Shown here piece by piece: positions 2,226 to 58,477 of a DNA stretch of 64,000 nt. Position 1 is the first letter of the stretch. Every line of letters starts with the position of its first letter. Source of the DNA: an uncultured Clostridia bacterium (GTDB taxonomy: Bacteria; Bacillota; Clostridia; Christensenellales; UBA1242). The stretch is from NCBI GenBank assembly GCA_945928645.1, contig CAMENR010000001.1, positions 33,439-97,438 of the forward strand, read 5' to 3'. The notes beneath the pieces were generated by a model. The model was given only the letters and a program-made list of their open reading frames with translations, was not told the origin of the DNA and did not search any database. Position numbers and translations under genes: made by a program.

Positions 2226-4109
2226 GTGATAATAAAATCGTGGAAAAATAGTAATAGCCCAAAAGAAATTATGAAGTTAATACAAAAAACAAAGACTATT
2301 GATAAGTTCAAGGTTCTAACTTATTTTGGTTTATATCAAAAAGATTTGGGAATGTTGGAAAAACTATTAAAATCTGGATACTATACTCCAGAAGAAATTG
2401 CGGAAAAATATAGTAGGAGTTATTTGACATGGAGTTATGCTCCAGCTCGTAAATTGGTTTTAGATTTTTCTGATTTAGCATGGCAAAAATCAGATAATTT
2501 ATTAAAGATATTAAGTATAAATGCTGGAGGTGTTTCAGATGATTATGAATCTTTTTTGATAAAGTTAAAATATTTTGAGCGATATAACCATGAAATTTAT
2601 GAGCAACTATTACAAACTAGTAAGGGGCAAATTTATATTCTTAATACATTAGCTCAGGATGCTGAGAAAAATAAAAATCAAATTTTTAACATATTGATAA
2701 GGCATTCAAATTTGCTTGATGGTTTTGATTTAATGGGATATAGAGAGTTGTTTTCAGATGAGGAATTTGAGATAATACAGGAAGAACGAAAAAAAAATTG
2801 GAAATGTGATACTGAGCCTCAACTAATTATGTATAAGGCAACACCAGAAAATAAATGGGAAATACTTGAATATTTTGCAAATAAAAATGAAGTAATTTTT
2901 AATAGAATAGTCAGTGAATATGTAACAAGAACAAGGAAAACTATTAAAAAAATTTATTCTAGAAGCGAAATTCTTGAACATTATAGTTCCATTGAGTTAG
3001 ATCTATTGCCTCTTTGCTTAAAAAATTATATCCTGACATTAGAGAAAGATATTGTAAATGAGAAGAAATTAAAAAGGCAAAAGCAGAAAGAAAGGATTGA
3101 AGTAAAAGAAAAAAAGTTGTTGTCTTGGGATGATGAGTATGCTTCCACAATATTTTTATTTAAGCTTGGTTCAATTACACCTAAGTCAAAATATGAATAT
3201 GAGAAAGTTTTGAAAAAATATTTAGTAGAAAGTTTAAGTATTACTGCATTCTGTATAAAGTATCAAATTAGCAATGTTAAAGGGTTTAAGAAAATGCTTG
3301 AGAAGTTCTCTGCGGAAAACCCTCAATATGCGGAGCAAATTAAATCAAAATCAAACATACAACGAGTACAATATGTAGAAAAAGTAAAGGATATTATCAA
3401 GAGTATTTGTGTTAGAGGCGAGTCTGTTGGATCAATTATGAGGTATTCGAAAATATTTTCGCTTGAGGAATTGCAGGTGGCAGCAAGTAGTTTATTTGCA
3501 GATAAGGATTATTGTGAATCTTTGACTATTAAGGTTATTGAATATTATTATAGTAGATTAGTTTCACATAGATATAGTATTGAGTCTAGTAACTTAGAAA
3601 ATATGCTAACAAATGATGAAATAAGATTTATTGTAGGAGATGAAGAATACAATGCAATAATATTTGGCAAAAAAAGTGAGATAAAAAGAATATTTCTAAA
3701 AAGAATCTCTTTCTTAAGCTCAACACGATATGCACTTATTAGACAAAAAGAAAATAGTCAGATACTAAACTTAATAAAAGCGATTGCTAAATATGACAGC
3801 AAGTTCAATAAAAATGAATATTTAAAAATGACAACATTTCTGTTTACAGAATGTGGGGAACAAGTGAAAGTAACTAAGAAGATAGTAGATATGGCATATC
3901 AATATGCGTACTCTAAAAATATATATACTAGCGATGCTGTTATGAGGAGTTTAATTAAAGGCGTTGTGAATGGTAAAATTAAAAATATAGGGGAGAATGA
4001 ACAAGCCAAAAAAAATAGGAGCAAAGACTTGGAATTTTTTAACAAAATAACTAATATTGATGAATATTTCGCAGTAATAGATAATTTTTATAATAAAAAT
4101 AAACAGTAA
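2226..4109 (+). CDS. hypothetical 627-aa protein, K/E/I/Y-rich, probably all-helical, no recognised motif
   Basis: Long uninterrupted ORF. GTG start lies 6 nt after a strong SD AAGAGGAG (2212-2219). I found no Walker, HExxH, DxD or nuclease motif by eye. Confidence 0.6.
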   Translation: MIIKSWKNSNSPKEIMKLIQKTKTIDKFKVLTYFGLYQKDLGMLEKLLKSGYYTPEEIAEKYSRSYLTWSYAPARKLVLDFSDLAWQKSDNLLKILSINAGGVSDDYESFLIKLKYFERYNHEIYEQLLQTSKGQIYILNTLAQDAEKNKNQIFNILIRHSNLLDGFDLMGYRELFSDEEFEIIQEERKKNWKCDTEPQLIMYKATPENKWEILEYFANKNEVIFNRIVSEYVTRTRKTIKKIYSRSEILEHYSSIELDLLPLCLKNYILTLEKDIVNEKKLKRQKQKERIEVKEKKLLSWDDEYASTIFLFKLGSITPKSKYEYEKVLKKYLVESLSITAFCIKYQISNVKGFKKMLEKFSAENPQYAEQIKSKSNIQRVQYVEKVKDIIKSICVRGESVGSIMRYSKIFSLEELQVAASSLFADKDYCESLTIKVIEYYYSRLVSHRYSIESSNLENMLTNDEIRFIVGDEEYNAIIFGKKSEIKRIFLKRISFLSSTRYALIRQKENSQILNLIKAIAKYDSKFNKNEYLKMTTFLFTECGEQVKVTKKIVDMAYQYAYSKNIYTSDAVMRSLIKGVVNGKIKNIGENEQAKKNRSKDLEFFNKITNIDEYFAVIDNFYNKNKQ

Positions 4110-4225: not shown

Positions 4226-4281
4226 CACTATAACAATTAAAATACATTCATTTTTATTTTGTAAATGTATTGGAGGGTAAC

Positions 4282-5700
4282 GTGGGGAAAGATAAAGAGG
4301 AAGCTTTGAAAAATTACTTTTTGAAAAAGGCTTACAAAAAAAGAGATATTGTTGAAGATGATGGTCTTGTCAACTATGTGGATATGGCGACAGGTAAAGT
4401 TGTTTATAATGATTATGAATTAGGCATTGGAAAATTCAACTTTGAAGATGTATCAGAACTGTCTTTGGATGATGCAATAGAAGTCAGGGCAAAAGAATTG
4501 GAAAGTATATTTGAGATGGGACTAAATGCATCGGGTAATTTTTCAAGAAGAGATTGGTTTTTTTATGTTATTAAATCTGCTAGGGCTGTATCAAATTTTT
4601 GTTGCGCAGTGATGGATATTGACCCAAATAGTGTGCTAGTTGAGTATTACGGAAGTGATAAAGGTTATACAATTATTGACTTAAATAAAGAAAATAGCCT
4701 AAACAATCTTGAAAAAAATGAAGGTCAAAATAATTGTGAAGCAAATGAGAAGTGCGCTAGCAAGATTGCAAATCAAAATGAAAATTTAACAGATGATGAA
4801 CAAGATAATGAAGAGTTCCAAGTTCAAGACTTCAGTGATGCTGCATATACAACAGGGTTTTTGGAAAATGGAAAACCAAAGTTTTGTATAGGAATAAATA
4901 TTGCGTTCCCAATGGAAACTTCAGTAGGACGTGTCTCTGATGTTTTTTGCACTTTTTTTCACGAAATGTGGCATGTTAAGGAATACAATGAGGAACTTTT
5001 ACACTTAAAAAATGTGGCAGAAAATTTAATAATAAAAGAATGTGATGGTTCAGAGATTGAATTTGAAAAGCCTGAAAATATTACTGATGAAACAAAAATG
5101 AATTTTATACAACAACTTATTGACAGATACAAAAGATGTTCTGCATATTCTGTTGATTATAGAACTTGGAGCTGTAATCCATCAGAAAGGAAGGCAGACC
5201 TTTTTGGGACTAGAATGACAAAGTTCTTTCTAAATGAGATAAATGCGGATAAAAAAACTAAGAAACTATTTTTGCGTGATAGAAAACGAGTGATGAACGA
5301 TCACGACTTCAATAGTATTTATGTCCCTATAAGGTCAGCGATAAAGGCGTTGCTTAACATTGATGTTCCAGGAGAGTTAAAGGACAACCAATATTTTGCC
5401 GATGAGATTTCAGAAGATGAAAGAGTGTCTCTTCTTAGCATTGAAAAGGCAGCAGATAACAATCCTGATTTATTGGGTCAAGAAAATTTTGAGATCAATG
5501 ATTATCACAATCCATTAGAGATGACAGAACAAACGGCTGAAAATCAAAGAGATGTTTATATAGAATTCTTGAAAAAGAATTTTGATGCTGTAAACAAAAT
5601 TATGGATTTGAACGACGAATGTCTAAATATAGAATATATGGAAGAAGACCTTGAAAATAACAGAGAGGACATGGAAGCAGGGATGTATCTGTTAAATTAA
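4282..5700 (+). CDS. hypothetical protein with zincin-like HExxH motif (possible metallopeptidase fold)
   Basis: HEMWH followed by H nine residues later (FFHEMWHVKEYNEELLH). Acidic/N-rich linker in the middle. GTG 4282 lies 4-5 nt after GGAGGG (4272-4277); the track's TTG 4270 overlaps that SD. Confidence 0.6.
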   Translation: MGKDKEEALKNYFLKKAYKKRDIVEDDGLVNYVDMATGKVVYNDYELGIGKFNFEDVSELSLDDAIEVRAKELESIFEMGLNASGNFSRRDWFFYVIKSARAVSNFCCAVMDIDPNSVLVEYYGSDKGYTIIDLNKENSLNNLEKNEGQNNCEANEKCASKIANQNENLTDDEQDNEEFQVQDFSDAAYTTGFLENGKPKFCIGINIAFPMETSVGRVSDVFCTFFHEMWHVKEYNEELLHLKNVAENLIIKECDGSEIEFEKPENITDETKMNFIQQLIDRYKRCSAYSVDYRTWSCNPSERKADLFGTRMTKFFLNEINADKKTKKLFLRDRKRVMNDHDFNSIYVPIRSAIKALLNIDVPGELKDNQYFADEISEDERVSLLSIEKAADNNPDLLGQENFEINDYHNPLEMTEQTAENQRDVYIEFLKKNFDAVNKIMDLNDECLNIEYMEEDLENNREDMEAGMYLLN

Positions 5701-11755: not shown

Positions 11756-11832
11756 TGGTGGTCCCAATAGGACTCGAACCTATGACCTCTTCGATGTGAA
11801 CGAAGCGCTCTAACCAACTGAGCCATGGGACC
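11756..11832 (-). tRNA. tRNA-Val (anticodon CAC), CCA encoded
   Basis: Reverse complement GGTCCCATGGCTCAGTTGGTTAGAGCGCTTCGTTCACATCGAAGAGGTCATAGGTTCGAGTCCTATTGGGACCACCA. Anticodon stem is CTTCG/CGAAG and the loop is TTCACAT. Confidence 0.88.
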
Positions 11833-12067
11833 TTAACTGCAAATATATTATCATAAAAAAATAAAAAATCAAGTAAATTGATTATATTTTTGAAAAATAA
11901 GCAAAAAAATTTTTGAAAAGAAAATTTTGTTCTTTTGAAATGGGGGAGTTGTCTTTTAGAATAATTGATTTTAGGATATATTTTTTATATTTATTATAGC
12001 AAAAAAAATCACCCAAAACAATCTGCTCAAAAAAACAAAAACACCCACCAAAACAAAACCCTCATTA

Positions 12068-12098
12068 AAAACAAAAACTCCCACCAAAGAGGTGAGGG
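12068..12098 (-). terminator. terminator of the Asn-rich lipoprotein gene
   Basis: Minus strand CCCTCACC-TCTT-TGGTGGGAG (one mismatch) followed by GTTTTTGTTTTT. Confidence 0.5.
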
Positions 12099-12131: not shown

Positions 12132-14297
12132 TTATGCACGCACTTGTTTTGGGCCAAATAAAAGGGAATAAGTGGATTGATTAGTATTTGAGCAAGTTCT
12201 TTGTATATAATCTACAACAGGGAGTCTTAATGGGGCTGTGTAATTATTTATTCTGTTATTATTCTGTGTAGATGAGTTGTTTCTTATATTTTGGTTATTT
12301 CTTCCAGTATTGCTATTTTGATATTGATTGTTTGTTTGATTATATTTTTGAATATTGTTATAGTTGTTTGTCGAGTTATATGCCTGGTTGTTGTTTTGAT
12401 TGTTTTTGTTGTAATTAAAATTCTGCATATTATTATTTCTATTGGCTGTATTATAATTGCGTGATGTATTATTTTGATTGAAATTCCTGTTCATATTATT
12501 ATAATTTTGAGAATAATTTTGGGTAGAATTATTATTTGAATTATTTATACCATTCATATTTTGTGAGTTGTAGTTGGTGGCAGAATGGGAATTGTTTATT
12601 CTATTGTTTTGATTGTCAAGATTAGCCTTTCTTATTGTGTTATTTGAAGAATTGTCCATTTGAGATGTTTTGTTGTTTTGAATTTTATTATAACTTACAC
12701 CATAGTTTGAATTTTGATTTTTGTTTGTTGTAGAGTTGTTGACATTTGTATTAGTTTTGTTCATTGCATATTGATTTGAATTATTTTGATTATATGCAGA
12801 TGATGTTTGATTTGTATTATTTATTGATGTATTATCTGAAACTTTTGTTGCATTGTTATTTGAAGTCTTATTTTGATATGAATTATATTGGTTAGAGAGT
12901 TTTTGACTATCATATATAGTATTTTCTATTGTTCTATCATCAGCCAAAGACTTGGATGCAACACTTGGAATAATTGTTGAAGAATCTGGATTTTTGTTTT
13001 CTGTAACTTCCTGAGTGTTTTTAGTATCCTTTGTATAGTTATTGTTTATGTTATTATTTTGTTGATTGAGAGAATTATTAGAGTAATTGGTTGAATTATT
13101 TTGATATGCATTTGTGTTATTTTGATATCTATTTGTATTTTCTTGATATCTATTTGTATTTTCTTGATATTTATTCGAGTTGTTTTGATACCTGTTTGAG
13201 TCATAAACTTTGTTTTTTGTTCTATTGGCTGAGTTATAATTGTTTGATTGATTATTTTGATTTATATAACTATTATTGCTGTTTTGTGAGTTTGAAACAC
13301 TATTTCTAGAAGATTGATATCGATTGCTGTCAAATTGATTTTTTGCATAATTATATCTTGTTTTTGAAGTTTGATTGGAGTTTAACATTGTATTGTCTAC
13401 TGTTTTTTCGCCAAGGAGTTTGCTGGCAAAATTTATAAGGTCTAAAACAGAATTGTTTGCGTTGTTGCAAGTATTGCAATTGGAGTCTATGCAGTTGTAA
13501 ATATTTCTATAATCTGCTGTCATAGAGCCAGAGTTGCTTGCTAGATTAAGCTTTTTCTTACCAATAGTGTTTACTGTGGATTTGCAACCTTTGCAAGATG
13601 TAATATTATTGGTGCATTGTTTGATAACTTCGTAGTAACTATTTAGTGTCTTGACATCACTGTCCGAAAGTTTTGCTTCACCTTTCTTTAATCTTTCCAA
13701 AAGTTCTTTGGCACGATTGCAGTTGTTTATAAGAGAAGTCTTTGTGTTGGAATATTCTTTGTTTAGGTCGCAAACATTGTTGCACGCTGTTCTAAGGTCA
13801 TTGTAGCTGGTGTCGCTGGTTGCAAGGTTAAGATTTCTCTTGGTTGCTCTGTAGTCATTTGATGCAAATAGGTTGGCGTTGGCTCGTTGAGTCATATGAT
13901 TTTTTGTTGGCATTTTTACATTCAGAACTTCTCTGTATGGATAAATATTTCTTCTAGTGTTGCTTCTTTGAGTAGAAGTGTCGCCATTCTGACTAGAAGT
14001 ATTGTAATTTTGGGAATAATTTTTGCATCTATAGCAACTTCCATCTTCACAATAATAGCAATCATCTCCATAGCAGTGATAACCGTCAGAAGTGTCCATA
14101 TTTTCTCCCAAAATAGAGTTTAGATTTATCTTGTCAGTGTTTACTTCCTCCAGTTTTTTTACCTGGGAAATCATCTTATCCAATCCTCCAGATATTTTTT
14201 TGCTAGCAAGATTGACCTGCGCTTGATTGCCATTTGAACATGCAAAAAGGAAGGTGCAAGCCAGCAAGATTGACAATAATCCAATAAATTTTTTCAT
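12132..14297 (-). CDS. lipoprotein with Cys-rich N-terminal domain and very long Asn/Gln-rich low-complexity tract
   Basis: Signal peptide plus lipobox (MKKFIGLLSILLACTFLFAC|SNG). Cys clusters include CYGDDCYYCEDGSCYRCKNY and CIDSNCNTCNN. From about aa 305 to 690 the sequence is dominated by N, Q, S, T and Y. Confidence 0.8.
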   Translation of the reverse strand: MKKFIGLLSILLACTFLFACSNGNQAQVNLASKKISGGLDKMISQVKKLEEVNTDKINLNSILGENMDTSDGYHCYGDDCYYCEDGSCYRCKNYSQNYNTSSQNGDTSTQRSNTRRNIYPYREVLNVKMPTKNHMTQRANANLFASNDYRATKRNLNLATSDTSYNDLRTACNNVCDLNKEYSNTKTSLINNCNRAKELLERLKKGEAKLSDSDVKTLNSYYEVIKQCTNNITSCKGCKSTVNTIGKKKLNLASNSGSMTADYRNIYNCIDSNCNTCNNANNSVLDLINFASKLLGEKTVDNTMLNSNQTSKTRYNYAKNQFDSNRYQSSRNSVSNSQNSNNSYINQNNQSNNYNSANRTKNKVYDSNRYQNNSNKYQENTNRYQENTNRYQNNTNAYQNNSTNYSNNSLNQQNNNINNNYTKDTKNTQEVTENKNPDSSTIIPSVASKSLADDRTIENTIYDSQKLSNQYNSYQNKTSNNNATKVSDNTSINNTNQTSSAYNQNNSNQYAMNKTNTNVNNSTTNKNQNSNYGVSYNKIQNNKTSQMDNSSNNTIRKANLDNQNNRINNSHSATNYNSQNMNGINNSNNNSTQNYSQNYNNMNRNFNQNNTSRNYNTANRNNNMQNFNYNKNNQNNNQAYNSTNNYNNIQKYNQTNNQYQNSNTGRNNQNIRNNSSTQNNNRINNYTAPLRLPVVDYIQRTCSNTNQSTYSLLFGPKQVRA
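13101..13205. repeat. 5 x 21-bp in-frame tandem repeat inside the lipoprotein gene (encodes NRYQENT-type heptads)
   Basis: Units start at 13101, 13122, 13143, 13164 and 13185 (TTGATATCTATTTGTATTTTC consensus). Units 2 and 3 are identical. Confidence 0.9.
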
Positions 14298-14440
14298 TTT
14301 TACCTCCGGAACATCAATTGTTCAAAGTTATTTTGGCAGAAATTTGTAAAATTATTTATTTTTTGAATAAAATTTTTTGCACTGACAATATTTATTGAGA
14401 ATTTTGTTGATGAGTTTATGGCAAAATTGCTGGAGGAATA

Positions 14441-14899
14441 ATGGATAAACTAAAAATAAACCAAGAGTATTGTAAATTTGTAGAAAATCGCCTTCCAAAA
14501 ACTAGATTTTTCCCATCTTTATTATGGGCATTTTTGGTGGGAGGGTTAATATGTTGCATTGGGCAGGGGATTTTTGATGGGCTTATGGCGCTGTTTCCAT
14601 CACTTTCAAAAGATGATGTTCAAGCGTATACATTGGTTATACTTATTTTTCTTGCAGCATTTCTTACGGGGCTAGGCATTTATGATAGGATAGGTGTTTT
14701 TGCTGGAGCAGGTTCTATTGTGCCGATAACTGGGTTTTCAAATTCTATTGTTAGTCCTGCAATGGACTTCAAAAATGAGGGATGGATATTTGGTGTTTGT
14801 GTAAAAATGTTTTCTGTGGCAGGTCCTGTTATTGTTACCGGCATAGCTTCAAGTATGCTTGTTGGTTTGGTTTACTATATAATTGGACTGTTTGGTTAA
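14441..14899 (+). CDS. spoVAC: stage V sporulation protein AC
   Basis: 152-aa 4-TM protein. GAGSIVPITGFSNSIVSPAM and the GPVIVTG context are typical of SpoVAC. It is followed by spoVAD and spoVAE. Confidence 0.9.
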   Translation: MDKLKINQEYCKFVENRLPKTRFFPSLLWAFLVGGLICCIGQGIFDGLMALFPSLSKDDVQAYTLVILIFLAAFLTGLGIYDRIGVFAGAGSIVPITGFSNSIVSPAMDFKNEGWIFGVCVKMFSVAGPVIVTGIASSMLVGLVYYIIGLFG

Positions 14900-15006
14900 G
14901 TCATTTTGCTCTAAAATAAAGTCAACAGTGAGAATATTAAAAAGATATCAAAACTGTGTATAGTGCAAAAAAGCAATCACATTTTACAACAAAAAAGGGA
15001 GAGATT

Positions 15007-16017
15007 ATGTTAAATAGAGTTGGAGAAAGAACCATCAAATTTACAAAAACACCAAAACTTATAAGTGGATATGCAATTGTAGGACCAAAAGAGGGGCTAA
15101 GTCCTGTGTCTAAATATTTTGACTATATCTTAAAGAATGACTTGTTTAATGAAAAAACATATGAAATTGCCGAAAGGAAAATGTTGGAACAGGCAATATG
15201 TGGAGCAACTGACAAGGCGAATATTCTATCTACAGACATAGATGTGCTACTAAGTGGAGATTTGCTAAATCAGATTATTTCTGCCTCTTATTCTGCAAGA
15301 CAAATTCAAACGGCATTTGTTGGTGTGTTTGGCGCTTGTTCAACGATGACAGAGAGCATTGCTTTAGGTGCTTGCCTTGTTGATGGTGGATATTGTGGCA
15401 GGGTTGCTTGTGCTACTTGCAGTCATTTTTCTACAGCAGAAAGGCAGTTTAGGTCGCCTCTGGAACTTGGATGTCAAAGACCACCAACTTCGCAGTGGAC
15501 AGTTACTGGTGCTGGTTGTTCCATTTTGGCAAATGAGGGCAATGGGCATAATATTGTTTATGCTACATTTGGAAAGGTTGTAGATTTTGGAATAAATGAT
15601 ATGAACAATATGGGGGCCGCTATGGCACCTGCTGCGGCGGATACACTAAGGGCTCTTTTTAGGGATACAAACACCACACCATCAGATTATGACCTAATAG
15701 CCACAGGGGACCTTGGAAAGTTGGGAAGTGAAATTTTGGTGGACCTTATGGAGAATTATGGCTATAAAATGGGAGAAAACTATTGTGATTGTGGGCAACT
15801 GATATACAGTAACAAGCAAAGGAGTTTTATGGGTGGAAGTGGATGTGGTTGCAGTGCCAGTGTTATCAATTCCTATATTTTGAGCAAACTAGACAGTGGA
15901 GATTATAAAAAAGTTATCCTTATGTCCACAGGGGCGCTTATGAGCACTACTTCCAGTCAGCAGGGAGAAACTATCCCTGGTATAGCTCATGCTGTAGTTA
16001 TAGAAAAGGGAAGATAA
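15007..16017 (+). CDS. spoVAD: stage V sporulation protein AD
   Basis: Thiolase-like fold (FGACSTMTESIALG, GGSGCGCSA). Start moved to ATG 15007 (MLNRVGERTIKF) behind SD AAGGGAGAG. Confidence 0.9.
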   Translation: MLNRVGERTIKFTKTPKLISGYAIVGPKEGLSPVSKYFDYILKNDLFNEKTYEIAERKMLEQAICGATDKANILSTDIDVLLSGDLLNQIISASYSARQIQTAFVGVFGACSTMTESIALGACLVDGGYCGRVACATCSHFSTAERQFRSPLELGCQRPPTSQWTVTGAGCSILANEGNGHNIVYATFGKVVDFGINDMNNMGAAMAPAAADTLRALFRDTNTTPSDYDLIATGDLGKLGSEILVDLMENYGYKMGENYCDCGQLIYSNKQRSFMGGSGCGCSASVINSYILSKLDSGDYKKVILMSTGALMSTTSSQQGETIPGIAHAVVIEKGR

Positions 16018-16096
16018 AGGGATATAAAGATAACTATTTGACAGGGTATATAGGGATATAACTATTTGGTAGGATATATAAGGATATAACTATTTG
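16013..16096. repeat. three about 28-bp direct repeats ending in GATA(TA)ACTATTTG, rich in GGATATA
   Basis: Units 16013-16040, 16041-16068 and 16069-16096. The last two share 23 of 28 positions. The repeats lie in the spoVAD-spoVAE spacer. Confidence 0.8.
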
Positions 16097-16110
16097 AAAG
16101 GGGTGAATAT

Positions 16111-16476
16111 ATGTTTTTGAAATATCTTATAGTATTTGGAGTTGGTGGTTTTGTTTGCTTGATTGCACAGATACTTATAATAAGGACTCGTATGACTTCA
16201 GCAAGGATTCTTGTTTTGTTTGAACTTATTGGAGTGCTGTTGCAGGCAGTGGGGATATTTGAACCCATAAAGAATTTTGCCAATGCAGGTATAACTGTGC
16301 CAATTATAGGCTTTGGAGCAAGTCTTGCAAGAGGGGCTATGGAAGGAGTAAAGAAAGCAGGAATTCTTGGCATATTTAATGGTGGAGTTACAGCAACATC
16401 TGCTGGTATAGCGGCTGCGGTTGGTTTTGGATATTTATTTGCACTTATATTCAAAGCACATAGCAAGAAGTCTTAG
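16111..16476 (+). CDS. spoVAE: stage V sporulation protein AE (SpoVAEB-type)
   Basis: 121-aa membrane protein. AGITVPIIGFGASLARGAMEG and TATSAGIAAAV match the SpoVAE/SpoVAC-like family. SD GAAAGGGG lies upstream. Confidence 0.85.
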   Translation: MFLKYLIVFGVGGFVCLIAQILIIRTRMTSARILVLFELIGVLLQAVGIFEPIKNFANAGITVPIIGFGASLARGAMEGVKKAGILGIFNGGVTATSAGIAAAVGFGYLFALIFKAHSKKS

Positions 16477-16741
16477 TTTAAGTATTAATAACTGTTATGG
16501 ACTTATAGATAATTGTGAGGTATTGGATTGTAATCAGTGAGTGTATAACTATATGTTGGTCATAGTATTTATGGCAATCACACAATCGGAGGATTGCATA
16601 TTGTTATATAGGTTGAATATAAATGCTTGATTATATGTTCAAAGTTAAATGGTTATAATATGGTTATCAGCGTAATACTATTACATTATCATATTCTAGA
16701 GGATTATCATATTTTTCCTAATGGAATAGTATTATATAAGT

Positions 16742-17452
16742 ATGGAAGAGGTAGGACAAAACTGCTGTGAGGAATACAAGTCGCTAGAACAAAAATATAT
16801 AGAGAGCAGATTTAGCAAATGCAAAAAGAAACACTTTAGGAGGGGATTACTTATATTCCTTTCTATTACTATTGGCATTGTAATCTGCCTTTTTTGCTAT
16901 ATAAGGTTAGTAGTTGCCCCTATTGTATGGGAATATGGAAAATCTGGCATAGAAAAAATGTTAGTAAATTCTAGCAATAAAGCGATATCCAGTATAGGCA
17001 TAACTCAATATGATGACCTAACTACAATAAATTATGATAGTTCAAACAAGATAACTTCAATAGTAACAAACTCAGCAAAGGTTAATCAGTTGGCTAATGC
17101 TCTGGCTATGACAACTCAGGGAGAGATAGATAAGCAGGCTTCACTTGGTCTAAAAATTCCAATTGGAACATGCACTGGGATAACTTTTCTTGTAGGGCGT
17201 GGAGGAGATATAACATTAACTGTTCAACCACATGGAAATATTTTGTGTAGGTTTTATTCTACATTTACAAGTTCTGGGATAAATCAAACGCTTCATCAAG
17301 TGTGGGTTTCGATGGAGAGTGAGGCGACTCTTGTTTTGCCATTTGGCTCAAAAAATATCAATAAACAAGCAGAATATTTGGTGGCGGAATGTGTAATTGT
17401 TGGAGAAATACCAAATGTTTATCTTTCTGGAGCAAAATTTTATGCGAACTAA
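16742..17452 (+). CDS. yunB: sporulation protein YunB
   Basis: N-terminal TM segment, then LKIPIGTCTGITFLVGRGGDITL, SSGINQTLHQVW and VIVGEIPNVYL, matching the YunB pattern. Confidence 0.8.
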   Translation: MEEVGQNCCEEYKSLEQKYIESRFSKCKKKHFRRGLLIFLSITIGIVICLFCYIRLVVAPIVWEYGKSGIEKMLVNSSNKAISSIGITQYDDLTTINYDSSNKITSIVTNSAKVNQLANALAMTTQGEIDKQASLGLKIPIGTCTGITFLVGRGGDITLTVQPHGNILCRFYSTFTSSGINQTLHQVWVSMESEATLVLPFGSKNINKQAEYLVAECVIVGEIPNVYLSGAKFYAN

Positions 17453-17569
17453 AGTTGCAGAAAGTTTGAAATTATGGTTGACATTTTTGATATAAATGTT
17501 AATATATTATCGTTGATAATTTTTGAGGTTGTTTTGCGATTGGTGTAAAATTACCTTGAAATTTTCTTA

Positions 17570-17830
17570 TAAAGGCGATAATGAAAGATTAGTAGTGCAG
17601 TCATGGGTGCCCAGACAGTCAAAAAAGAGAGAGCCTTCGCCCAAAGGGTGTGCTGAAAAAGGCTTGTTGATTGTGACTCTCGAATTCACTTTCTAGCCTC
17701 CAACTGAAGTGGTAGTAGGATTGGACGGGTTTGCCCGTAACAGCAAAAATGAGGGTCTTTTGACCGAAATTAGGTGGTACAGCGGAGAGTTCCGCCCTAA
17801 TGCAAATGGGGAGGAATTCTCTTTTTATTT
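17570..17830 (+). promoter_or_regulatory. T-box riboswitch leader, Phe-specific (pheST)
   Basis: AGAGAGA bulge region. Specifier context GAA-TTC-A with UUC at 17685-17687. T-box core AAATTAGGTGGTACAGCGG at 17767-17785. Terminator arms GGAGAGTTCCGCCC / GGGGAGGAATTCTC (17808-17821) are followed by T5. A possible promoter is TTGACA 17478-17483 / TAATAT 17500-17505. Confidence 0.85.
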
Positions 17831-17847
17831 AACAACAAGGAGTGATT

Positions 17848-26970: not shown

Positions 26971-27624
26971 TTAGTAGTTTCGGATAAGCCCAACAACTTT
27001 GCCCAAAATAACCGCATCTTTGCAAATAATAGGCTTCATAAAATCATTTTCTGGTTGAAGTCGTATTTGGCCATCTTCCTTGAAAAATCGCTTAACTGTT
27101 GCACATCCGTTGATCATTGCGACCACAATTTCTGAATTCTCTGCTGTGTTTTGCTGTTTTACTACAATTTTGTCCTTATTATATATGCCAGCATTTATCA
27201 TACTATCACCCTTTACTGTGAGCATAAAAACTTGACCATTTGTATTGAACAGGTTTTGGGGAAGTTCATATACTTCATCATAATTTTCGTATGCCAAAAT
27301 TGGTTGTCCTGCGGCAACTTCGCCTAATAGAGGGATAAGACAAGTTGGTTGTTTAGGTCTTTGTTCTTCTTTTAGGAGTTGAATTGCTCTATTTTTGCTA
27401 TCACATCTTTTAATATAGCCACGCTCTTCCAATTTATCCAAATAATATTTCATAGTGGCAGTAGACAATACTCCCAATTCTTTCATCATTTCTCTCAGAG
27501 ATGGCTGATATCCTCGCACAGCTATCCAGTGTTTTATCATATTGTAGGATTGCTCGAGCTTTTGGTCTAAAGCTTCTGCTCGATTTTTTGAATTTGCTGA
27601 TTTAACCTTTTTTTCATTATCCAT
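26971..27624 (-). CDS. lexA: LexA repressor (with about 28-aa K/E-rich N-terminal extension)
   Basis: wHTH (GYQPSLREMMKELGV), cleavage-region AAGQP, and S24 peptidase motifs GDSM and VVKQ. ATG 27624 lies behind GGAGG. Confidence 0.95.
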   Translation of the reverse strand: MDNEKKVKSANSKNRAEALDQKLEQSYNMIKHWIAVRGYQPSLREMMKELGVLSTATMKYYLDKLEERGYIKRCDSKNRAIQLLKEEQRPKQPTCLIPLLGEVAAGQPILAYENYDEVYELPQNLFNTNGQVFMLTVKGDSMINAGIYNKDKIVVKQQNTAENSEIVVAMINGCATVKRFFKEDGQIRLQPENDFMKPIICKDAVILGKVVGLIRNY

Positions 27625-27659
27625 AATAACCTCCAGAACGAATAATTATTTTCTAAAAG

Positions 27660-27698
27660 ATTTTATCATAAAAAAACTAAATTGTCAAACATATGTTT
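27660..27698 (-). promoter_or_regulatory. lexA promoter with overlapping SOS (Cheo-like) box
   Basis: Minus strand: TTGACA (27688-27683), 17-nt spacer, TGaTAAAAT (-10 at 27665-27660). The palindrome AAACATATGTTT (27687-27698) overlaps the -35. It resembles the Firmicute box CGAACATATGTTCG with symmetric G>A / C>T changes. Confidence 0.55.
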
Positions 27699-27787
27699 AC
27701 AATTTTAATTTGTTAAAATTTTTGTATTTTTATTCATAAATATTTATGTAATAAAAAATATCAACTCTTGAGTAGGGAAGTGGAATA

Positions 27788-28846
27788 TCAACTCTCGTTG
27801 CTTTCACGAAGTTTAACAACATTTGCGACTTTTCTTCGTGAGTCTTCAGAAATGGCGGCATAATGTTTCTTGGTAGTATTTACATCTCTGTGCCCAAGCA
27901 CATCTGCTACAATGTATATGTCGCCAGTTTCACGATAGAGGTTTGTCCCGTAGGTGCTACGCAGTTTGTGTGGAGTGATATGTTTTAGTGGTATGCAATC
28001 TTGACTATATTTTTTTACCAGTTGCTCCACTGCACGCACACCTATTCTTTTGTTCTGGATGGAAAGGAAAAGGGCATGTTCATCTGGACTGACAAATTCG
28101 TTGGATAGCCTTTCTTTAAGATAATTTTGCAAAGAGGTGGCTACTTCTTCTGAAAAATATAACACTGTTTGTGCTCCACCTTTTCGAGTGATTTTGAACC
28201 CATTTGTATCAAAATCTATGTCTTCAATGTTTAGCCCAACACACTCACTAACACGTATCCCTGTGCCCAACAATAAAGTTAAGATAGCAATATCTCTTGT
28301 TTTTGTAAGTTTATTGTATGATTGTTGCCTTTTGGAAAAATCTTTTGGATTTTCGGCAGTATTTAACAATTTTACTACCTCATTAACTTCCAGCCTAACA
28401 ATTTCTTTATCTCTTATCTTTGGTGTATCTATTTTGCTTGCGACATTTTCACTCAGTTTTCCTTTTTTATAAAAATACCTAAAAATACTTCTCACTGCCG
28501 ACAGTTTGCGTGCTTTTGCTCTTGAGTTGTTTGAAAAAATTTCACCAGATTTCTCATAATTTGAAAGGTAATTGAGGTATATCTCAAGATGAGTTTGAGT
28601 AATTTTACCCAAATCCTCAAGTGTTATATCCTTAACTTTTTTGCCAATAAACTCCAAGATTTCTTTTGTTAAAAATTCAAAAAAAATCTTAAGGTCTTGT
28701 GCATAGCCTACTCGAGTGAGGGGCGTTGTGGTATTTTCTATCCCTCTAAAATATTCATCGCAAAAGGAGGGAAGTTCAAACAATAATAACTTTAATTGAT
28801 TGGAATTTTTTAGATTCCTTTCTACAAAATAATTTGCATTTTTCAT
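27788..28846 (-). CDS. tyrosine site-specific recombinase (XerC/XerD/phage-integrase family)
   Basis: N-terminal SAM-like domain. Catalytic residues in GTGIRVSE, HKLRSTYGT and LGHRDVNTTKKHY (R..H-x-x-R..H..Y). Confidence 0.85.
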   Translation of the reverse strand: MKNANYFVERNLKNSNQLKLLLFELPSFCDEYFRGIENTTTPLTRVGYAQDLKIFFEFLTKEILEFIGKKVKDITLEDLGKITQTHLEIYLNYLSNYEKSGEIFSNNSRAKARKLSAVRSIFRYFYKKGKLSENVASKIDTPKIRDKEIVRLEVNEVVKLLNTAENPKDFSKRQQSYNKLTKTRDIAILTLLLGTGIRVSECVGLNIEDIDFDTNGFKITRKGGAQTVLYFSEEVATSLQNYLKERLSNEFVSPDEHALFLSIQNKRIGVRAVEQLVKKYSQDCIPLKHITPHKLRSTYGTNLYRETGDIYIVADVLGHRDVNTTKKHYAAISEDSRRKVANVVKLRESNES

Positions 28847-29001
28847 ATCATCAAAATTTTAACAATAATTTATAATTTTGTCCAACAAATTTAGTCTTCT
28901 TTGAGCAAAATAAGTGAAATTGTTATGTTAGGGCTTTCAATTTATTTTTTGGGCTCAATATTTATTTTTTTGAAATATGTTTTGAAAATTGTTTATAGAA
29001 G

Positions 29002-29030
29002 TTGACATTTTTTTATGTGTTATTTATACT
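29002..29030 (+). promoter_or_regulatory. candidate sigma-A promoter of serS
   Basis: TTGACA (29002-29007), 17-nt spacer, TATACT (29025-29030). This leaves only about a 30-nt leader. Confidence 0.5.
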
Positions 29031-29063
29031 ATACACGTATTTAATGTATAAGAGGATAAAGAG

Positions 29064-30341
29064 ATGATTTCACTAGAACTTATAAAAAAAGATAAAAAGA
29101 AAATAGAAGAATTGCTTGCAATGAAGGGTTGTGAAGTTAATTTTGACCCAGTGATAGAATGGGATAGACAACGTAGGGAGATTATACAAGAGGTAGAATC
29201 TCTTAAATCACAAAAAAACAAGGTTAGCGCACAAATTCCTGCCCTTAAAAAAGAAGGGAAGGACACCACAACTATTTTTGAAGAAATGAAATTGCTTGGC
29301 CATAAAATAGAAGAATTGGATAGGAATCTTGCCACCATAGAACAACAAATTTTTGACTTTGTTTCTGTGTTGCCTAATCCACCAGACGATGACCTTTTGC
29401 CTGGTGGAAAAGAAAACAATAAAGTATTAAGACAAGGCAACAAAAAACCAGAGTTTAAGTTTAAGCCAAAAAACCATGTTGAACTTTGCACAGATCTTGG
29501 CCTTGTTGATTACGAGCGAGGTGTAAAACTCGCTGGCAATGGAGCATGGATATATAGGGGTATTGGGGCAAGATTGGAATGGGCTTTGCTTAATTATTTT
29601 GTTGATGAACATACAAAGGACGGATACGAATTTATTTTACCACCTCATATGCTAAACTATGATTGTGGCTTTGGGGCAGGGCAATTCCCAAAATTTAGTG
29701 ATGAAGTGTATTGGATAGACAATAAAGATGAAAAATCCAAATTCCTCCTTCCAACAGCAGAAACAGCATTGGTAAATTTGTATAAAGGCGAGATTATGCA
29801 AGAAGATGAATTGCCAAAGAAATTTTTTGCATATACTCCTTGTTATAGGAGAGAAGCAGGTAGTTATAGACAAGAAGAACGTGGAATGATAAGAGGTCAT
29901 CAATTTAATAAAGTTGAAATGGTGCAATACACAACTCCGGCTCAGGGGGATAAAGCCTTTGAGGAGTTGGTAACTAAGGCGGAAAATCTTGTTAAAAATC
30001 TTGGTCTTCATTATCAAGTTTCAAAGCTTGCAGCAGGGGATTGTTCTGCCTCTATGCGCAGGACTTATGACATCGAAGTATGGATACCAAGTATGGGGAT
30101 TTATAAGGAAGTTTCTTCTGCATCTAATGCTGGAGATTATCAAGCAAGGAGAAACAACACTCGCTATAGAGATTCCAAAACCAAAAAGACAGAATATGTC
30201 TATACTCTCAATGCAAGTGGGTTGGCAACATCAAGATTGATTCCTGCAATCGTTGAACAATATCAAAATGCTGACGGCAGTGTAACTGTGCCAGAAGTAT
30301 TAAGGAAATATCTTGGCGGATTGGAAGTTATAAAAAAATAA
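29064..30341 (+). CDS. serS: seryl-tRNA synthetase
   Basis: N-terminal coiled-coil arm and class II motifs (FRREAGSYRQEERGMIRGHQFNKVE, TLNASGLATSR). Confidence 0.95.
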   Translation: MISLELIKKDKKKIEELLAMKGCEVNFDPVIEWDRQRREIIQEVESLKSQKNKVSAQIPALKKEGKDTTTIFEEMKLLGHKIEELDRNLATIEQQIFDFVSVLPNPPDDDLLPGGKENNKVLRQGNKKPEFKFKPKNHVELCTDLGLVDYERGVKLAGNGAWIYRGIGARLEWALLNYFVDEHTKDGYEFILPPHMLNYDCGFGAGQFPKFSDEVYWIDNKDEKSKFLLPTAETALVNLYKGEIMQEDELPKKFFAYTPCYRREAGSYRQEERGMIRGHQFNKVEMVQYTTPAQGDKAFEELVTKAENLVKNLGLHYQVSKLAAGDCSASMRRTYDIEVWIPSMGIYKEVSSASNAGDYQARRNNTRYRDSKTKKTEYVYTLNASGLATSRLIPAIVEQYQNADGSVTVPEVLRKYLGGLEVIKK

Positions 30342-30370
30342 TTTTGATAGCAAGTTTTGAAGGGAAGGTT

Positions 30371-31252
30371 ATGGACAGAGAAACGATAATTCGGTTATCT
30401 CAACTAAAAAACAAAGAAAAAGTGCAGGACTTTTATACAAAAGCCCTGTCCTTTTTAACTGCATCATTAAGTGAATTGGTTGATAGCAGACTGGTCCAAA
30501 ACTTTGATGAATCTACTACAAAAATTTTTCCTATGGGAGAATATACCAACAACACCTTTATAGATGAACTTGGAGAATTGGAAATTGTTGTAGCATCATC
30601 AAACCCACAACTTGTGCTTTCCAATGCTATCCTAACCAAACATAATAGCAAAAAACAAGAGCAAAGATTTTTAATTACAGGGACTTATGCCGACATAATA
30701 CCAAAATTAGCTCAAATTATGTCGCAATATTTTGCTGAGAAAACAATGTTTTTGCTTGTTGATGACGGTCTAAAAATCTTTTGCGCCAATGAATTTGGGT
30801 TTAAGATTTTGATTAGGTTTGCCACCTATCTGGAGGGTGATGAAAATGCTATTTTGTCATTTTGGAATCCTCTAAAGAATTGCAGTGAACAAGTTAATTT
30901 GTTTGCTTATAACGAGCAAATGGACTTAAAAGATAGTCTTACCAAAGGAAATTATAAAAAAATTGTTAGAATATTCAAAAATATACGAAAGACAATCCTT
31001 ATAAATAAATGGATGACAGCCAGTCAAATGAATAAATATTTCGTAGAATTGATTATTTATAATATTCCAAACACATTGCTTATGGGCGATGAGATAGGGA
31101 AGATTTTTTACAAATGCCTTAATTTTCTTCAAAATTGTAGTATTTCAAAATTTACTTCTTTTGACGGGAAACCCCTTGATTCATTTACTCTTGCAGAAAT
31201 TAGTTATGCAAATATAAAGACTTTTCTGCATTATATATCCAAAATTATATAA
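30371..31252 (+). CDS. hypothetical protein, possible Pol-beta-superfamily nucleotidyltransferase fold (SMODS/CD-NTase-like?) with ExE in place of DxD
   Basis: PMGEYTNNTFIDELGELEIVV aligns by eye with the G[SG]-x9-13-[DE]h[DE]hhh NTase signature. Later WNPLKN...KGNYKKIVRIFKNIRK resembles the helical lid. ATG 30371 lies behind GAAGGGAAGG, 27 nt after the serS stop. The family call is tentative. Confidence 0.45.
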   Translation: MDRETIIRLSQLKNKEKVQDFYTKALSFLTASLSELVDSRLVQNFDESTTKIFPMGEYTNNTFIDELGELEIVVASSNPQLVLSNAILTKHNSKKQEQRFLITGTYADIIPKLAQIMSQYFAEKTMFLLVDDGLKIFCANEFGFKILIRFATYLEGDENAILSFWNPLKNCSEQVNLFAYNEQMDLKDSLTKGNYKKIVRIFKNIRKTILINKWMTASQMNKYFVELIIYNIPNTLLMGDEIGKIFYKCLNFLQNCSISKFTSFDGKPLDSFTLAEISYANIKTFLHYISKII

Positions 31253-56037: not shown

Positions 56038-56682
56038 TTAGTTGATAGGATAAATATCCTCTTGATCATAGTTTTCAAAATAATTTTCTTTTCCTATGTT
56101 ATAACTAGATATTTTATCTTTTCCATAACCATTTCTATTAGATTTATTTGCATAAATATTATTATCACTTTTTTGCAAAAAATCGTTTGATGACAAATTA
56201 TACCCTTCATTGTCATGTTGTAAATTTGCCCAGTTTTGATTTCTGAAGTTGTTTAATTTAACAGTTTTTTCACGCTGTGTTTTATCTTGCATATGTTGTG
56301 AAGTATGCTGATTTGCATTGTTCCCCTCCATACTATCGCCCACATCATTTCTATCATAAATTGCTCCATCTCCATCTTTGCCATCTTGTTGATTTTGGGC
56401 TTCAAAAATGCGAACTGGTTTGTTCCTTTGTTTTTTTGAAGGAGGTTCTGCAACCTCCACAAGAATGATATCCTCTCCAATTCTACAAACATGCGAAAAA
56501 GGAATAAAAATCTCTTGCGAAGATTTGAAAAAATTAAAAAAATTTTTACATCCAGGGACAATAAATCCCAATATCCTATTACATCTAAGGTCCAAAACAA
56601 TATCGCATATATTCCCCAACATTTTACCTGTAAGGGCATTTATTACCTCTTTGCTTCGAAGTTCTGTAAATGTAGTTTCCAT
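56038..56682 (-). CDS. YlmC/YmxH-like PRC-barrel sporulation protein with about 140-aa N/Q/D-rich C-terminal extension
   Basis: ELRSKEVINALTGKMLGNICDIVLDL...ILGFIVPG...IPFSHVCRIGEDIILVE is the YlmC/YmxH PRC barrel. The start (ATG 56682 versus TTG 56721) is uncertain; neither has a strong SD. Confidence 0.7.
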   Translation of the reverse strand: METTFTELRSKEVINALTGKMLGNICDIVLDLRCNRILGFIVPGCKNFFNFFKSSQEIFIPFSHVCRIGEDIILVEVAEPPSKKQRNKPVRIFEAQNQQDGKDGDGAIYDRNDVGDSMEGNNANQHTSQHMQDKTQREKTVKLNNFRNQNWANLQHDNEGYNLSSNDFLQKSDNNIYANKSNRNGYGKDKISSYNIGKENYFENYDQEDIYPIN

Positions 56683-56798
56683 ACTTTTATAAATATGCTC
56701 TTTGCTGCCAAAATAAAACAAAATTCAACAAAAGTTTATTGACTGGCTATGGAATATAATCATTATTGTTGGGCAATCTACAATAAAGGTGATAAAAA

Positions 56799-57578
56799 AT
56801 GTCCAATAGAGTTGATATATGTGGATTAAACACATCAAATATTCCAAAATTGTCCTCAACTGAGGTTGCCAATCTTATGAAAAGGTTGAAATCCGGGGAC
56901 AAAGAGGCACGAGAAATGTTTCTATATTCAAATATGAGGCTGGTATTGAGTGTTGTAAAGCGCTTCGCTAACAAAAGCGATAATATAGACGACATTTTCC
57001 AGGTAGGTTTTGTTGGGCTGATAAAGGCTATGGATAATTTTGATGAAAAATTTAATGTCAAATTCTCAACTTATGCTGTCCCTATGATAATTGGAGAGAT
57101 TAGAAGGTTTGTTAGAGATAATTCTGCAGTTAGGGTAAGTAGAAGTTTGAGAGATATAGCATATAAGGCATTGCAAGCAAGAGAAAGACTTTCTAGAACA
57201 AATTCAAATGAGCCAAACATTGAACAAATTGCAACAGAAGCAAATCTCTCTACAAGGCAAATATTAACTGCCCTCGATGCCATATCTGAGCCTATATCAC
57301 TCTTTGACCCAGTATATAATGATAGTTCAGAAAACGTTATGATTATGGACCAAATAAAAGATATAAAGAATACCAGTGAAGAATTTATAGACCACGTAGT
57401 TTTAAAAGAAGCACTAAATAATCTTGGTATGCGAGAAAAGGAGATACTTTGGTTAAGGTATTACTTAGGCAAAACTCAAATAGAAATAAGCAATCAAGTA
57501 GGTATATCTCAAGCCCAGGTAAGCAGGCTTGAAAAAAATGCTCTGGAAGAGATTAAAAAGGATTTTTTTAGTCAATAA
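56799..57578 (+). CDS. sigG: forespore sigma factor SigG
   Basis: VDICGLNTSNIPKL, NMRLVLSVVKRF, DDIFQVGFVGLIKAMDNFD, VKFSTYAVPMIIGEIRRFVRDNSAVRVSRSLRDIAYKA and ISQAQVSRLEK are near-identical to the corresponding blocks of B. subtilis SigG. Confidence 0.9.
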   Translation: MSNRVDICGLNTSNIPKLSSTEVANLMKRLKSGDKEAREMFLYSNMRLVLSVVKRFANKSDNIDDIFQVGFVGLIKAMDNFDEKFNVKFSTYAVPMIIGEIRRFVRDNSAVRVSRSLRDIAYKALQARERLSRTNSNEPNIEQIATEANLSTRQILTALDAISEPISLFDPVYNDSSENVMIMDQIKDIKNTSEEFIDHVVLKEALNNLGMREKEILWLRYYLGKTQIEISNQVGISQAQVSRLEKNALEEIKKDFFSQ

Positions 57579-57699
57579 ATATGTTTTTGGGGATATTTTT
57601 ACTATAATTTAATACTTAAAATAGTTTTATCTTTACATTTAATATTTTACTTTTGTATTTAATTATATATTATTTGCAAAATATAAACTTGATAATATG

Positions 57700-58458: not shown

Positions 58459-58477
58459 AAAGATTCTCCTTTTAACA

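Follow-up and report, generated by a model that had tools for sequence, protein, structure and literature searches.

Why is a long, Asn-rich protein encoded back to back with the spoVA genes in an uncultured Clostridia bacterium, and does it belong to the sporulation machinery? The gene in question lies at 12132–14297 (minus strand, stop codon included) of a 64,000-nucleotide stretch of contig CAMENR010000001.1, hereafter the window, and encodes a lipoprotein of 721 amino acids (aa). A first-pass annotation, made from this single sequence, had described a lipoprotein with a Cys-studded domain and a prion-like tract next to the spoVA operon. We have compared the gene with its relatives and have found that it is real and under purifying selection, and that throughout the order Christensenellales it keeps a fixed position, divergent from spoVAC-AD-AE-yunB. 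Its tail of ~420 residues is Asn-rich and fast-changing in length and composition, and retains a few short motifs and a C-terminal xVRA. With moderate confidence, we read it as a lineage-specific, probably forespore-expressed sporulation lipoprotein of spore-forming Christensenellales, with a disordered and possibly gel-forming tail.

SpoVAD was used as the handle for collecting comparison loci, and a scan with one genome per species has given 80 of them, the nearest coming from uncultured Christensenellales or 'Christensenella sp.' gut metagenome-assembled genomes (MAGs). When residues 21–305 of the window protein are used as the phmmer query, exactly one open reading frame (ORF) is found in each of 23 loci, with E values from 1e-185 to 1e-12. 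In the 22 loci examined this orthologue is divergent from spoVAC across 110–190 bp, and the remaining locus (L010) has the same arrangement. In the window itself 143 bp (14298–14440) separate the two genes. A profile of the helical domain (alignment A1, 28 sequences, mean column identity 47%) adds about 18 ORFs with E values from 1e-20 to 1e-3; these more distant proteins, of 289–658 aa, are lipoproteins too, again with N-rich tails. Among 81 loci, which were chosen for SpoVAD alone, the profile matches, among them the 23 orthologues, are without exception located upstream of spoVAC, and no other ORF matched. The neighbouring block of spoVAC, spoVAD, spoVAE and yunB, assigned by Pfam and NCBIfam (14441–17452, plus strand), adjoins the lipoprotein gene in ~41 loci. 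This adjacency persists down to SpoVAD identities of ~57–65% and saturated synonymous divergence (dS). The far-side neighbours (MurI-like, Pol IV), on the other hand, are kept only in the closest species, while the lipoprotein gene, spoVAC-AD-AE and yunB persist throughout. That is, the link to spoVA proposed at first pass is much stronger than a single sequence could show, as the divergent adjacency is kept in ~41 species.

The same position holds further proteins in other loci. In L026 it is occupied by a 1042-aa lipoprotein with 34% Asn, which we have left out of the member count because the A1 profile does not detect it. In L049–L053 the ORF divergent from spoVAC encodes a secreted N/T/Q-rich protein of 396–629 aa that has a signal peptide but lacks a clear lipobox Cys. 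These ORFs go undetected by the A1 profile, and they may be either analogous by position alone or homologous at a very great distance. Farther out in the Clostridia, a ~248-aa SigF-like protein, identified by eye only, is often encoded upstream of spoVA. In Bacillus, the spoIIA operon lies upstream of spoVA.

An exhaustive HMMER pass over 1.84 billion cluster representatives has returned only 28 relatives at E ≤ 1e-3, and no source-given name was attached to family members in the seven clusters looked up. The exact look-up of the window protein sequence gave no record. Pfam and NCBIfam give no match to it at E ≤ 0.01 and none to ten other family members at E ≤ 1, and no SpoVA Pfam domain is found in it. 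A word-index homology search with aa 1–305 and with A1 also had no match, although homologues sit in the collection, so this index evidently fails to retrieve them. As far as these homology searches go, the protein family is previously undescribed and restricted to the order Christensenellales, and is of a familiar kind, a sporulation-associated lipoprotein with an Asn-rich low-complexity region.

For strain-level comparison we have a Logan contig (L001, SRR5008253), which is 98.9% identical to the window over 10 kb and carries a 714-aa allele, and a comparison locus (L002) whose SpoVAD is 96% identical. Overall, the ratio of non-synonymous to synonymous substitution rates (dN/dS) is 0.04–0.07 for the N-terminal part and 0.16–0.29 for the tail. 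Against L002 it is 0.06 for aa 1–305 and 0.27 for the tract, and against L001 it is 0.16 for the tract. In the L001 allele, residues 1–305 are identical, the heptad repeats described below are one fewer (four versus five), and ~22 substitutions are found, all in the tail. Every indel in the compared alleles consists of whole codons, and members of 90%-identity protein clusters differ in length only in the tail, start-codon calls aside. The N-terminal part is under strong constraint; the tail is under relaxed but real constraint and is the fastest-evolving part at strain level. The repeat-number comparison suggested by the first-pass annotation has therefore given a clear answer, as both repeat number and tail length differ between strains. 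The frameshifts or stops in relatives that would have marked a decaying gene are not seen: orthologues are intact in 23 loci, indels are in frame, and dN/dS is well below 1. We have also considered pseudogene, assembly-artefact and wrong-frame readings, which are ruled out by conservation, by dN/dS and by three independent assemblies. In addition, dS against L001 is 0.157 in the tail and 0.016 in the N-terminal part, a ~10-fold difference, and over one 100-nt stretch within 12600–13400 the window resembles L002, the more distant of the two, more closely than L001 does. The dS excess and this patch suggest a recombination mosaic or a hypermutable patch in low-complexity DNA.

The protein begins with MKKFIGLLSILLACTFLFAC, in which a basic n-region and a hydrophobic core lead up to the lipobox L-F-A-C. 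The n-region MKK is followed by the hydrophobic FIGLLSILLACTFLF, and this pattern is kept in all orthologues. The signal peptide (aa 1–19) and the lipobox Cys20 are encoded at 14238–14297 (minus strand). MKK and Cys20 are invariant in a full-length alignment of 24 sequences (A3), and the lipobox of the relatives, at the same position, reads [LVIT]xGC (LFGC, LVGC or TGC). The upstream C14 of the window protein (LLAC) is not kept in other species. The lipoprotein signal noted at first pass is thus present with its LFAC lipobox. By signal criteria the window protein is a lipoprotein, for which lipidation and cleavage by signal peptidase II are predicted.

The gene stands on the strand opposite to spoVA with its own promoter-like element and ribosome-binding site; it is not co-transcribed with spoVA, and its product, which has no SpoVA Pfam domain, does not appear to be a homologue of SpoVAA-AF. 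The ribosome-binding site GGAGGT (14302–14307, minus strand) was read from the sequence 4 nt before the ATG, and GGAGG is conserved in the orthologues. A terminator-like hairpin followed by a T run lies 36 nt past the stop codon (12080–12096, minus strand), found in a consensus scan as a pattern match only. Between the stop codon and this hairpin we have observed an 18-bp tandem repeat of 3.2 copies (AAAACAAAAACACCCACC on the plus strand, 12032–12088), and a tRNA-Val(CAC) gene of the same orientation (11756–11832, minus) lies 300 nt downstream of the lipoprotein gene.

When is the gene read? About 32–60 nt upstream of its ATG there is a promoter-like element, AAATA-N17-CAAAATA (14329–14357, minus strand), which is conserved in all 23 orthologues. 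Its general form, WAATA-N17-CAMAMTA, recurs in the intergenic regions of 23 of 23 orthologues without any change in spacing; it starts 43–67 nt (mostly 57–63) before the ATG and has 2 matches in the 64-kb window against 0.45 expected. Remote family members have a related (A)CATA...(C)AAAACTA element at the same place. Back to back with the lipoprotein element lies a spoVAC promoter-like element, GAATA-N16-CAATATT (14365–14392, plus strand), which is conserved in related loci, and sigG has an upstream element, GAATA-N17-CAATCTA (56752–56780, plus strand), of the same bipartite form as that of spoVAC. That is, three intergenic elements of the form RAATA-N16/17-CAANNT(A/T) stand directly upstream of sigG, spoVAC and the lipoprotein gene. 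Both spoVAC and sigG are transcribed in the forespore in model organisms. The Bacillus sigma-G consensus is GHATR-N17/18-CATXHTA, and a T at -10 position 3 occurs in the sigma-G, sigma-E and sigma-K consensus sequences of model organisms. We consider that RAATA-N16/17-CAANNT(A/T) may be the forespore sigma-factor promoter form of this lineage, in which position 3 of the -10 is A where the canonical base is T. Expression of spoVAC-AD-AE in C. difficile depends on sigma-G, the promoter of sigG there is of forespore type, and an A lies just downstream of the -10 in the sigma-G promoters of this species (PMC3789822). The window lipoprotein element also carries this A. To judge from its sequence, the element is not sigma-A-like. 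Transcription of the gene by a forespore sigma factor is moderately supported, mainly because the element is conserved across species and is arranged back to back with the putative spoVA promoter. The upstream regions of yunB and spoIVA were tried as sigma-E calibrators and dropped, as the yunB TCATATT...CATATTTT is unusable across species owing to start-codon uncertainty, and spoIVA is unclear.

The window encodes sigG, sigE, spoIIGA, spoIVA, ylbJ, ylmC/ymxH, spoVAC/AD/AE and yunB, and since it carries these sporulation genes, the organism clearly has the sporulation programme. In this window sigG (plus) is convergent with spoIIGA-sigE (minus) at 56799–59290; in Bacillus and Clostridioides, sigG is co-directional with spoIIGA-sigE and downstream of it. 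Sporulation has been predicted for some Christensenellales MAGs (PMC12536801).

Two AlphaFold runs agree with the alignments on six parts of the protein. A conserved N-terminal helix (AQVxLASKKISGGLDKMISQVKKLEEV, aa 25–48; 14154–14225, minus strand) is predicted with a local confidence score (pLDDT) of ~95. A variable linker, aa 66–160 (13818–14102, minus), aligns poorly and is predicted as disordered (pLDDT 30–55). It is followed by a conserved three-helix, Cys-containing domain, aa 163–294 (13416–13811, minus), which is defined by alignment A1, has a dN/dS of 0.04–0.06, and is predicted as three long helices at aa 163–204, 212–233 and 239–294 (pLDDT 85–97). Since the global score (predicted TM-score, pTM) is 0.62 for aa 21–306, the model suggests that the aa 25–48 helix and the three helices form one membrane-proximal bundle. 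For the tail, aa 301–721, pLDDT is 27–40 in every 10-residue block, all below 50, and no fold is predicted. A profile search of the domain against PDB sequences has returned only coiled-coil noise (E ≥ 0.04), and Foldseek against the PDB has no match at E < 0.1, the best being a Borrelia helical surface lipoprotein at a non-significant E of 0.46.

The N-terminal part had been described at first pass as a single Cys-studded domain of roughly 300 aa. The Cys motifs are indeed present, namely CYGDDCYYCEDGSCYRC (aa 75–91), CKGC (aa 235–238) and CIDSNCNTCNN (aa 269–279), but the single domain does not stand, as the N-terminal helix and the three-helix domain are separated by the disordered linker. 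Nor do the Cys clusters serve as a hallmark of the domain. The striking CYGDDCYYCEDGSCYRC cluster lies in the variable linker and is found only in the closest species, being absent from most orthologues; as it is so confined, it is not a family feature. Within the three-helix domain several Cys are semi-conserved, and only C193 is invariant among the 28 sequences of A1. Conserved metal-binding Cys clusters are ruled out as a candidate, given that one Cys alone is invariant and that the CX4CX2CX4CX2C cluster is clade-specific.

The low-complexity tail, rich in Asn, Gln, Ser, Thr and Tyr, covers aa 301–690 (12228–13397, minus strand). It is set off by composition, by its low pLDDT, by its higher dN/dS and by its variable length. 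Asn makes up 178 of the 721 residues of the protein (24.7%), against 6.4% across the other 52 ORFs of the window, and the maximum of Q+N per 80 aa is 48, with the runner-up in the window at 25. Other window proteins are therefore unlike this one, as had been stated at first pass. The value of 48 is above the Michelitsch-Weissman criterion of 30 Q+N per 80 residues. An approximate re-implementation of PAPA (no FoldIndex/disorder step) exceeds the threshold of 0.05 only over aa 574–676, with a maximum of 0.138. Composition-based prion criteria would thus flag the tract, as the first-pass annotation had anticipated. Within aa 306–690 we count 34% N, 12.5% S, 9.6% Q, 8.8% T and 7.8% Y, and 13% charged residues with a net charge of +20. 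The richness in N/Q/S/T/Y from about aa 305 to 690 is thus as first described, but the tract is not almost uninterrupted: at aa ~425–475 Asn falls to ~12% and charge rises, and a conserved motif, YTKDTK (aa 421–426), sits just before this break.

The GC content of the tract is 25% against 33% for the window. Its Asn codons are 67% AAT and 33% AAC, against a background of 72/28; since this mix is near background, the tract does not represent recent pure AAT slippage, and its Asn-richness is held at protein level. The tract also contains five in-frame 21-bp repeats (13095–13199, minus strand), which encode (S/T)N(R/K/A)YQ(E/N)N heptads, namely SNRYQNN, SNKYQEN, TNRYQEN, TNRYQNN and TNAYQNN. Tandem Repeats Finder reports a 21-bp unit in 5.1 copies at 13091–13198, and the reading register gives the in-frame limits. 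The five repeats had been recognised at first pass, with coordinates (13101–13205) whose register was off by a few bases.

How much of this composition belongs to the family? The tails of the 37 members long enough for analysis span 130–611 aa with 13–35% Asn (mean 24%). K+R is steady at ~11% and aliphatic residues are low at ~15%. Other residues vary widely, Q from 1 to 14%, Y from 1 to 18%, G from 0 to 16% and D+E from 2 to 19%, and several tails are D/E/K-rich. In the clade of the window a Tyr recurs at intervals of about 11 residues; with Tyr ranging from 1% to 18% among members, a conserved 'sticker' pattern of this residue is ruled out as a family property. Therefore, the family-wide property is a long, polar, Asn-rich, disordered tail with docking-type motifs, and the N/Q/Y 'prion' composition is limited to the clade of the window. 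The first-pass notion of a prion-like tract does not extend to the family, as Q and Y, on which the predictors depend, vary, and only Asn-richness, polarity and disorder are kept. Another Asn-rich protein has been observed in the window, a 227-aa YlmC/YmxH-family PRC-barrel sporulation protein (56041–56721, minus strand) with the barrel at aa 18–90. It has 12% N and, with 25 Q+N in 80 aa, is second highest in the window; since it is N/Q-rich outside the barrel, it is a second sporulation protein of this genome with an Asn-rich extension.

Some short motifs are also kept in the tail. An NNRYL motif stands directly after the helical domain in many members. A mid-tail motif, NYTKDTKNT in the window protein (13014–13040, minus strand; family motif [PH]xTKDIK), is shared by about half of the members and sits at a similar relative position in them. 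At the C-terminus, pattern search and alignment A3 have revealed the motif GPKQVRA (12135–12155, minus strand). In the family pattern, [KQNRHE]x[VI]R[AVY] occurs within the last 25 aa of 42 of 42 complete members, with a chance expectation of ~0.002 per protein, and V719 and R720 are invariant in A3. Remote members often finish in KP[KR]I[ER]K[LV] instead. Among remote members, L024–L047 and L065 have G/Y/N-rich tails (GYGYGG...) with a recurring NIDTY(K/R) / NIDTFGSYKNIDTYK motif, and L030, L033, L035 and L036 have dense Cys-repeat stretches such as CTNCPDCTNCNDCTNCENCINCKNCEDCKDCENCVNCK. Overall, the family keeps Cys20 of the lipobox, the bundle, the short tail motifs and the C-terminal xVRA, together with a tail that is Asn-rich but differs in length and composition.

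A working model can be proposed along these lines. The gene would be transcribed during sporulation, late in the forespore, from a non-sigma-A promoter of sigma-F/G type abutting the spoVA promoter. The product would be exported by Sec, lipidated at Cys20, and anchored on the outer face of the inner forespore membrane, which houses the SpoVA dipicolinate (DPA) channel. There the bundle may be the specific functional module, offering a partner-binding or membrane-organising surface. The tail would act as a long hydrophilic tether, or as a self-associating gel-like filler, reaching the germ-cell-wall and cortex space, where its short motifs, especially the C-terminal xVRA, might dock to something in the intermembrane space. 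Asn-richness would then be kept at protein level for a polar, disordered and possibly gel-forming property, and not as a conserved prion domain. A more specific version, which we hold to be improbable, is that of an order-specific, forespore-made intermembrane component whose bundle engages the SpoVA channel or the inner membrane and whose tail forms a hydrogel or amyloid-like phase in the germ-cell-wall/cortex space.

Several points weigh against the assignment to the forespore. The lipoprotein element has no -35 G, and its -10 never carries the position-3 T of the model-organism consensus. The relaxed motif is not rare in this AT-rich window, where 12 matches stand against 6.9 ± 2.6 in shuffled sequence (~1.7-fold), and the promoter assignment is one of motif resemblance. 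Conserved adjacency is no proof of shared function. All family hosts are uncultured MAGs, and the role in sporulation is a probable one. For the mechanism, the bundle packing is a prediction from a multiple alignment of 23 sequences, judged by its confidence scores, and any partner is putative.

These points must be set beside those bearing on other explanations. The protein might be a vegetative cell-surface lipoprotein, an adhesin or envelope spacer, for which the spoVA position is inherited gene order without functional meaning; low-complexity tails are common on surface lipoproteins, and the best, though non-significant, fold matches are Borrelia helical surface lipoproteins. We find this quite unlikely, because the adjacency outlasts SpoVAD divergence while the gene on the other side changes, because the element in front of the gene is unlike a sigma-A promoter and shares its form with those at spoVAC and sigG, and because every family match in loci chosen for SpoVAD alone stands at the spoVAC-divergent position. 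Given this promoter type and synteny, a site inside the spore, in the intermembrane space, is more likely than the surface-anchored adhesin suggested at first pass. The bundle might also be the whole function, with the tail as a tolerated by-product of AT-biased mutation and replication slippage, which would suit the low GC of the tract, the strain-level indels and 21-bp repeat polymorphism, the ~10-fold excess of synonymous divergence with its mosaic patch, and the dispensable repeats of the Asn-rich C. difficile protein GerG. However, a tail of 130 aa or more is found in every one of ~40 family members, with no case of loss, the dN/dS of the tail is 0.16–0.29 and not ~1 with all indels in frame, both Asn codons are at background proportions, and other proteins of the same genome are not Asn-rich. 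Moreover, the strictly conserved C-terminal motif and the mid-tail motifs must stay joined to the bundle via the tail. We therefore take this explanation to be unlikely, though still viable in part in view of the dispensable GerG repeats.

In a further explanation, the N/Q/Y-rich tail is a true amyloid domain, self-templating outside the membrane and building a matrix on the spore or cell surface. The 48 Q+N per 80 aa, the approximate PAPA maximum with its stretch above threshold at aa 574–676, and the Tyr about every 11 residues in the clade of the window would all agree with it, as would the Asn-rich GerG repeats, which gel in vitro (PMC5241399), and the enrichment of predicted bacterial prion-like domains in envelope proteins (PMC4606120). 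On the other side, Q (1–14%) and Y (1–18%) are not conserved, several tails are D/E/K-rich, and K+R of ~9–11% in the tail is penalised by PAPA; by this approximate score only about a quarter of the tract is above threshold. The conserved elements are short linear motifs and not composition alone, and the GerG repeats are dispensable for function. An exported protein, in addition, cannot be a cytoplasmic heritable prion; since the protein carries a signal peptide, heritable switching of the C. botulinum Rho (Cb-Rho) type, a parallel drawn at first pass, is not a sensible model. We regard a true amyloid domain as very unlikely; by composition it is plausible for the clade of the window but not for the family, and extracellular gelation or amyloid may still occur.

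The forespore lipoprotein reading can be compared with known systems. GerD, the germinosome scaffold of Bacillales, is a helical lipoprotein that is produced in the forespore and resides at the inner membrane of the spore. The window protein resembles it in having a lipid anchor and a helical module that would be near the membrane holding SpoVA and the germinant receptors. It differs in that GerD has no long Asn-rich tail, and no GerD chain is among the PDB profile or Foldseek matches. In B. subtilis YhcN, a polar Asn/Asp-rich low-complexity stretch adjoins the lipobox. YhcN/YlaJ proteins (PF09580) share the N-terminal lipoprotein signal with the window protein and are located at the spore inner membrane (PMC12331253). 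The synteny and promoter of the window gene suggest a comparable forespore-side lipoprotein. Unlike YhcN/YlaJ, however, the window protein has no PF09580 or NCBIfam match; it has an all-helical N-terminal bundle and a C-terminal low-complexity tail of several hundred residues, and its family is confined to Christensenellales.

GerG (CD0311) of C. difficile, a sporulation protein, has ~30% Asn and strain-variable central repeats, which gel in vitro and are dispensable for its germination function (PMC5241399). It is sigma-E controlled, its repeats are GMPNNMSNNMNSNM (Met/Pro-rich), and it is not described as a lipoprotein (PMC5241399). Both proteins are lineage-restricted and Asn-rich (the window lipoprotein with 24.7% overall and 34% in the tract) with strain-variable repeats, but the repeat descriptions, NRYQENT heptads vs GMPNNMSNNMNSNM, set them apart with no evident homology, and the GerG gene is not spoVA-linked. 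With C. botulinum Rho and the yeast Q/N-rich prion domains, the window tail shares a Q+N density far above 30 per 80 residues and a part above the PAPA threshold. It differs from them in that the window protein is predicted to be exported and lipid-anchored, not cytoplasmic, and in that composition beyond Asn-richness is not conserved. Overall, YhcN/YlaJ and GerG appear to be the best functional analogues of the window lipoprotein, which shows no evident homology to either.

Some other features of the window have been observed. Two adjacent ORFs on the plus strand, 2226–4106 and 4270–5697, encode 627 and 476 aa, the second with 10% Asn, and have no Pfam/NCBIfam match at 1e-5. The 390-nt leader upstream of pheS-pheT (17453–17841) shows no T-box or other Rfam family at gathering score; in many Firmicutes, a T-box lies upstream of pheS-pheT. 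At 26974–31249, lexA, a tyrosine recombinase/integrase (27791–28846, minus strand) and a weak anti-phage nucleotidyltransferase match (30344–31249) flank serS, and this lexA-serS region may be what is left of a mobile or defence islet.

What would the family mean for the biology of these bacteria? Uncultured gut Christensenellales are abundant, and what is known of their sporulation comes solely from gene inventories modelled on Bacillus and Clostridioides, to which this lipoprotein gene is invisible. If it is a spore protein, it could serve as a candidate marker by which metagenomes and metaproteomes are searched for sporulating Christensenellales, and it would be a candidate for partnering or organising the membrane of the DPA channel. 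The ~40 orthologous Asn-rich tails of differing Q, Y and G content on one fold make a natural test series for distinguishing a spacer, a gel and an amyloid. Should the tail form the hydrogel or amyloid-like phase that we hold to be improbable, it would constitute a proteinaceous matrix aiding dormancy or the gating of DPA release, a spore-envelope material undescribed in model spore formers.

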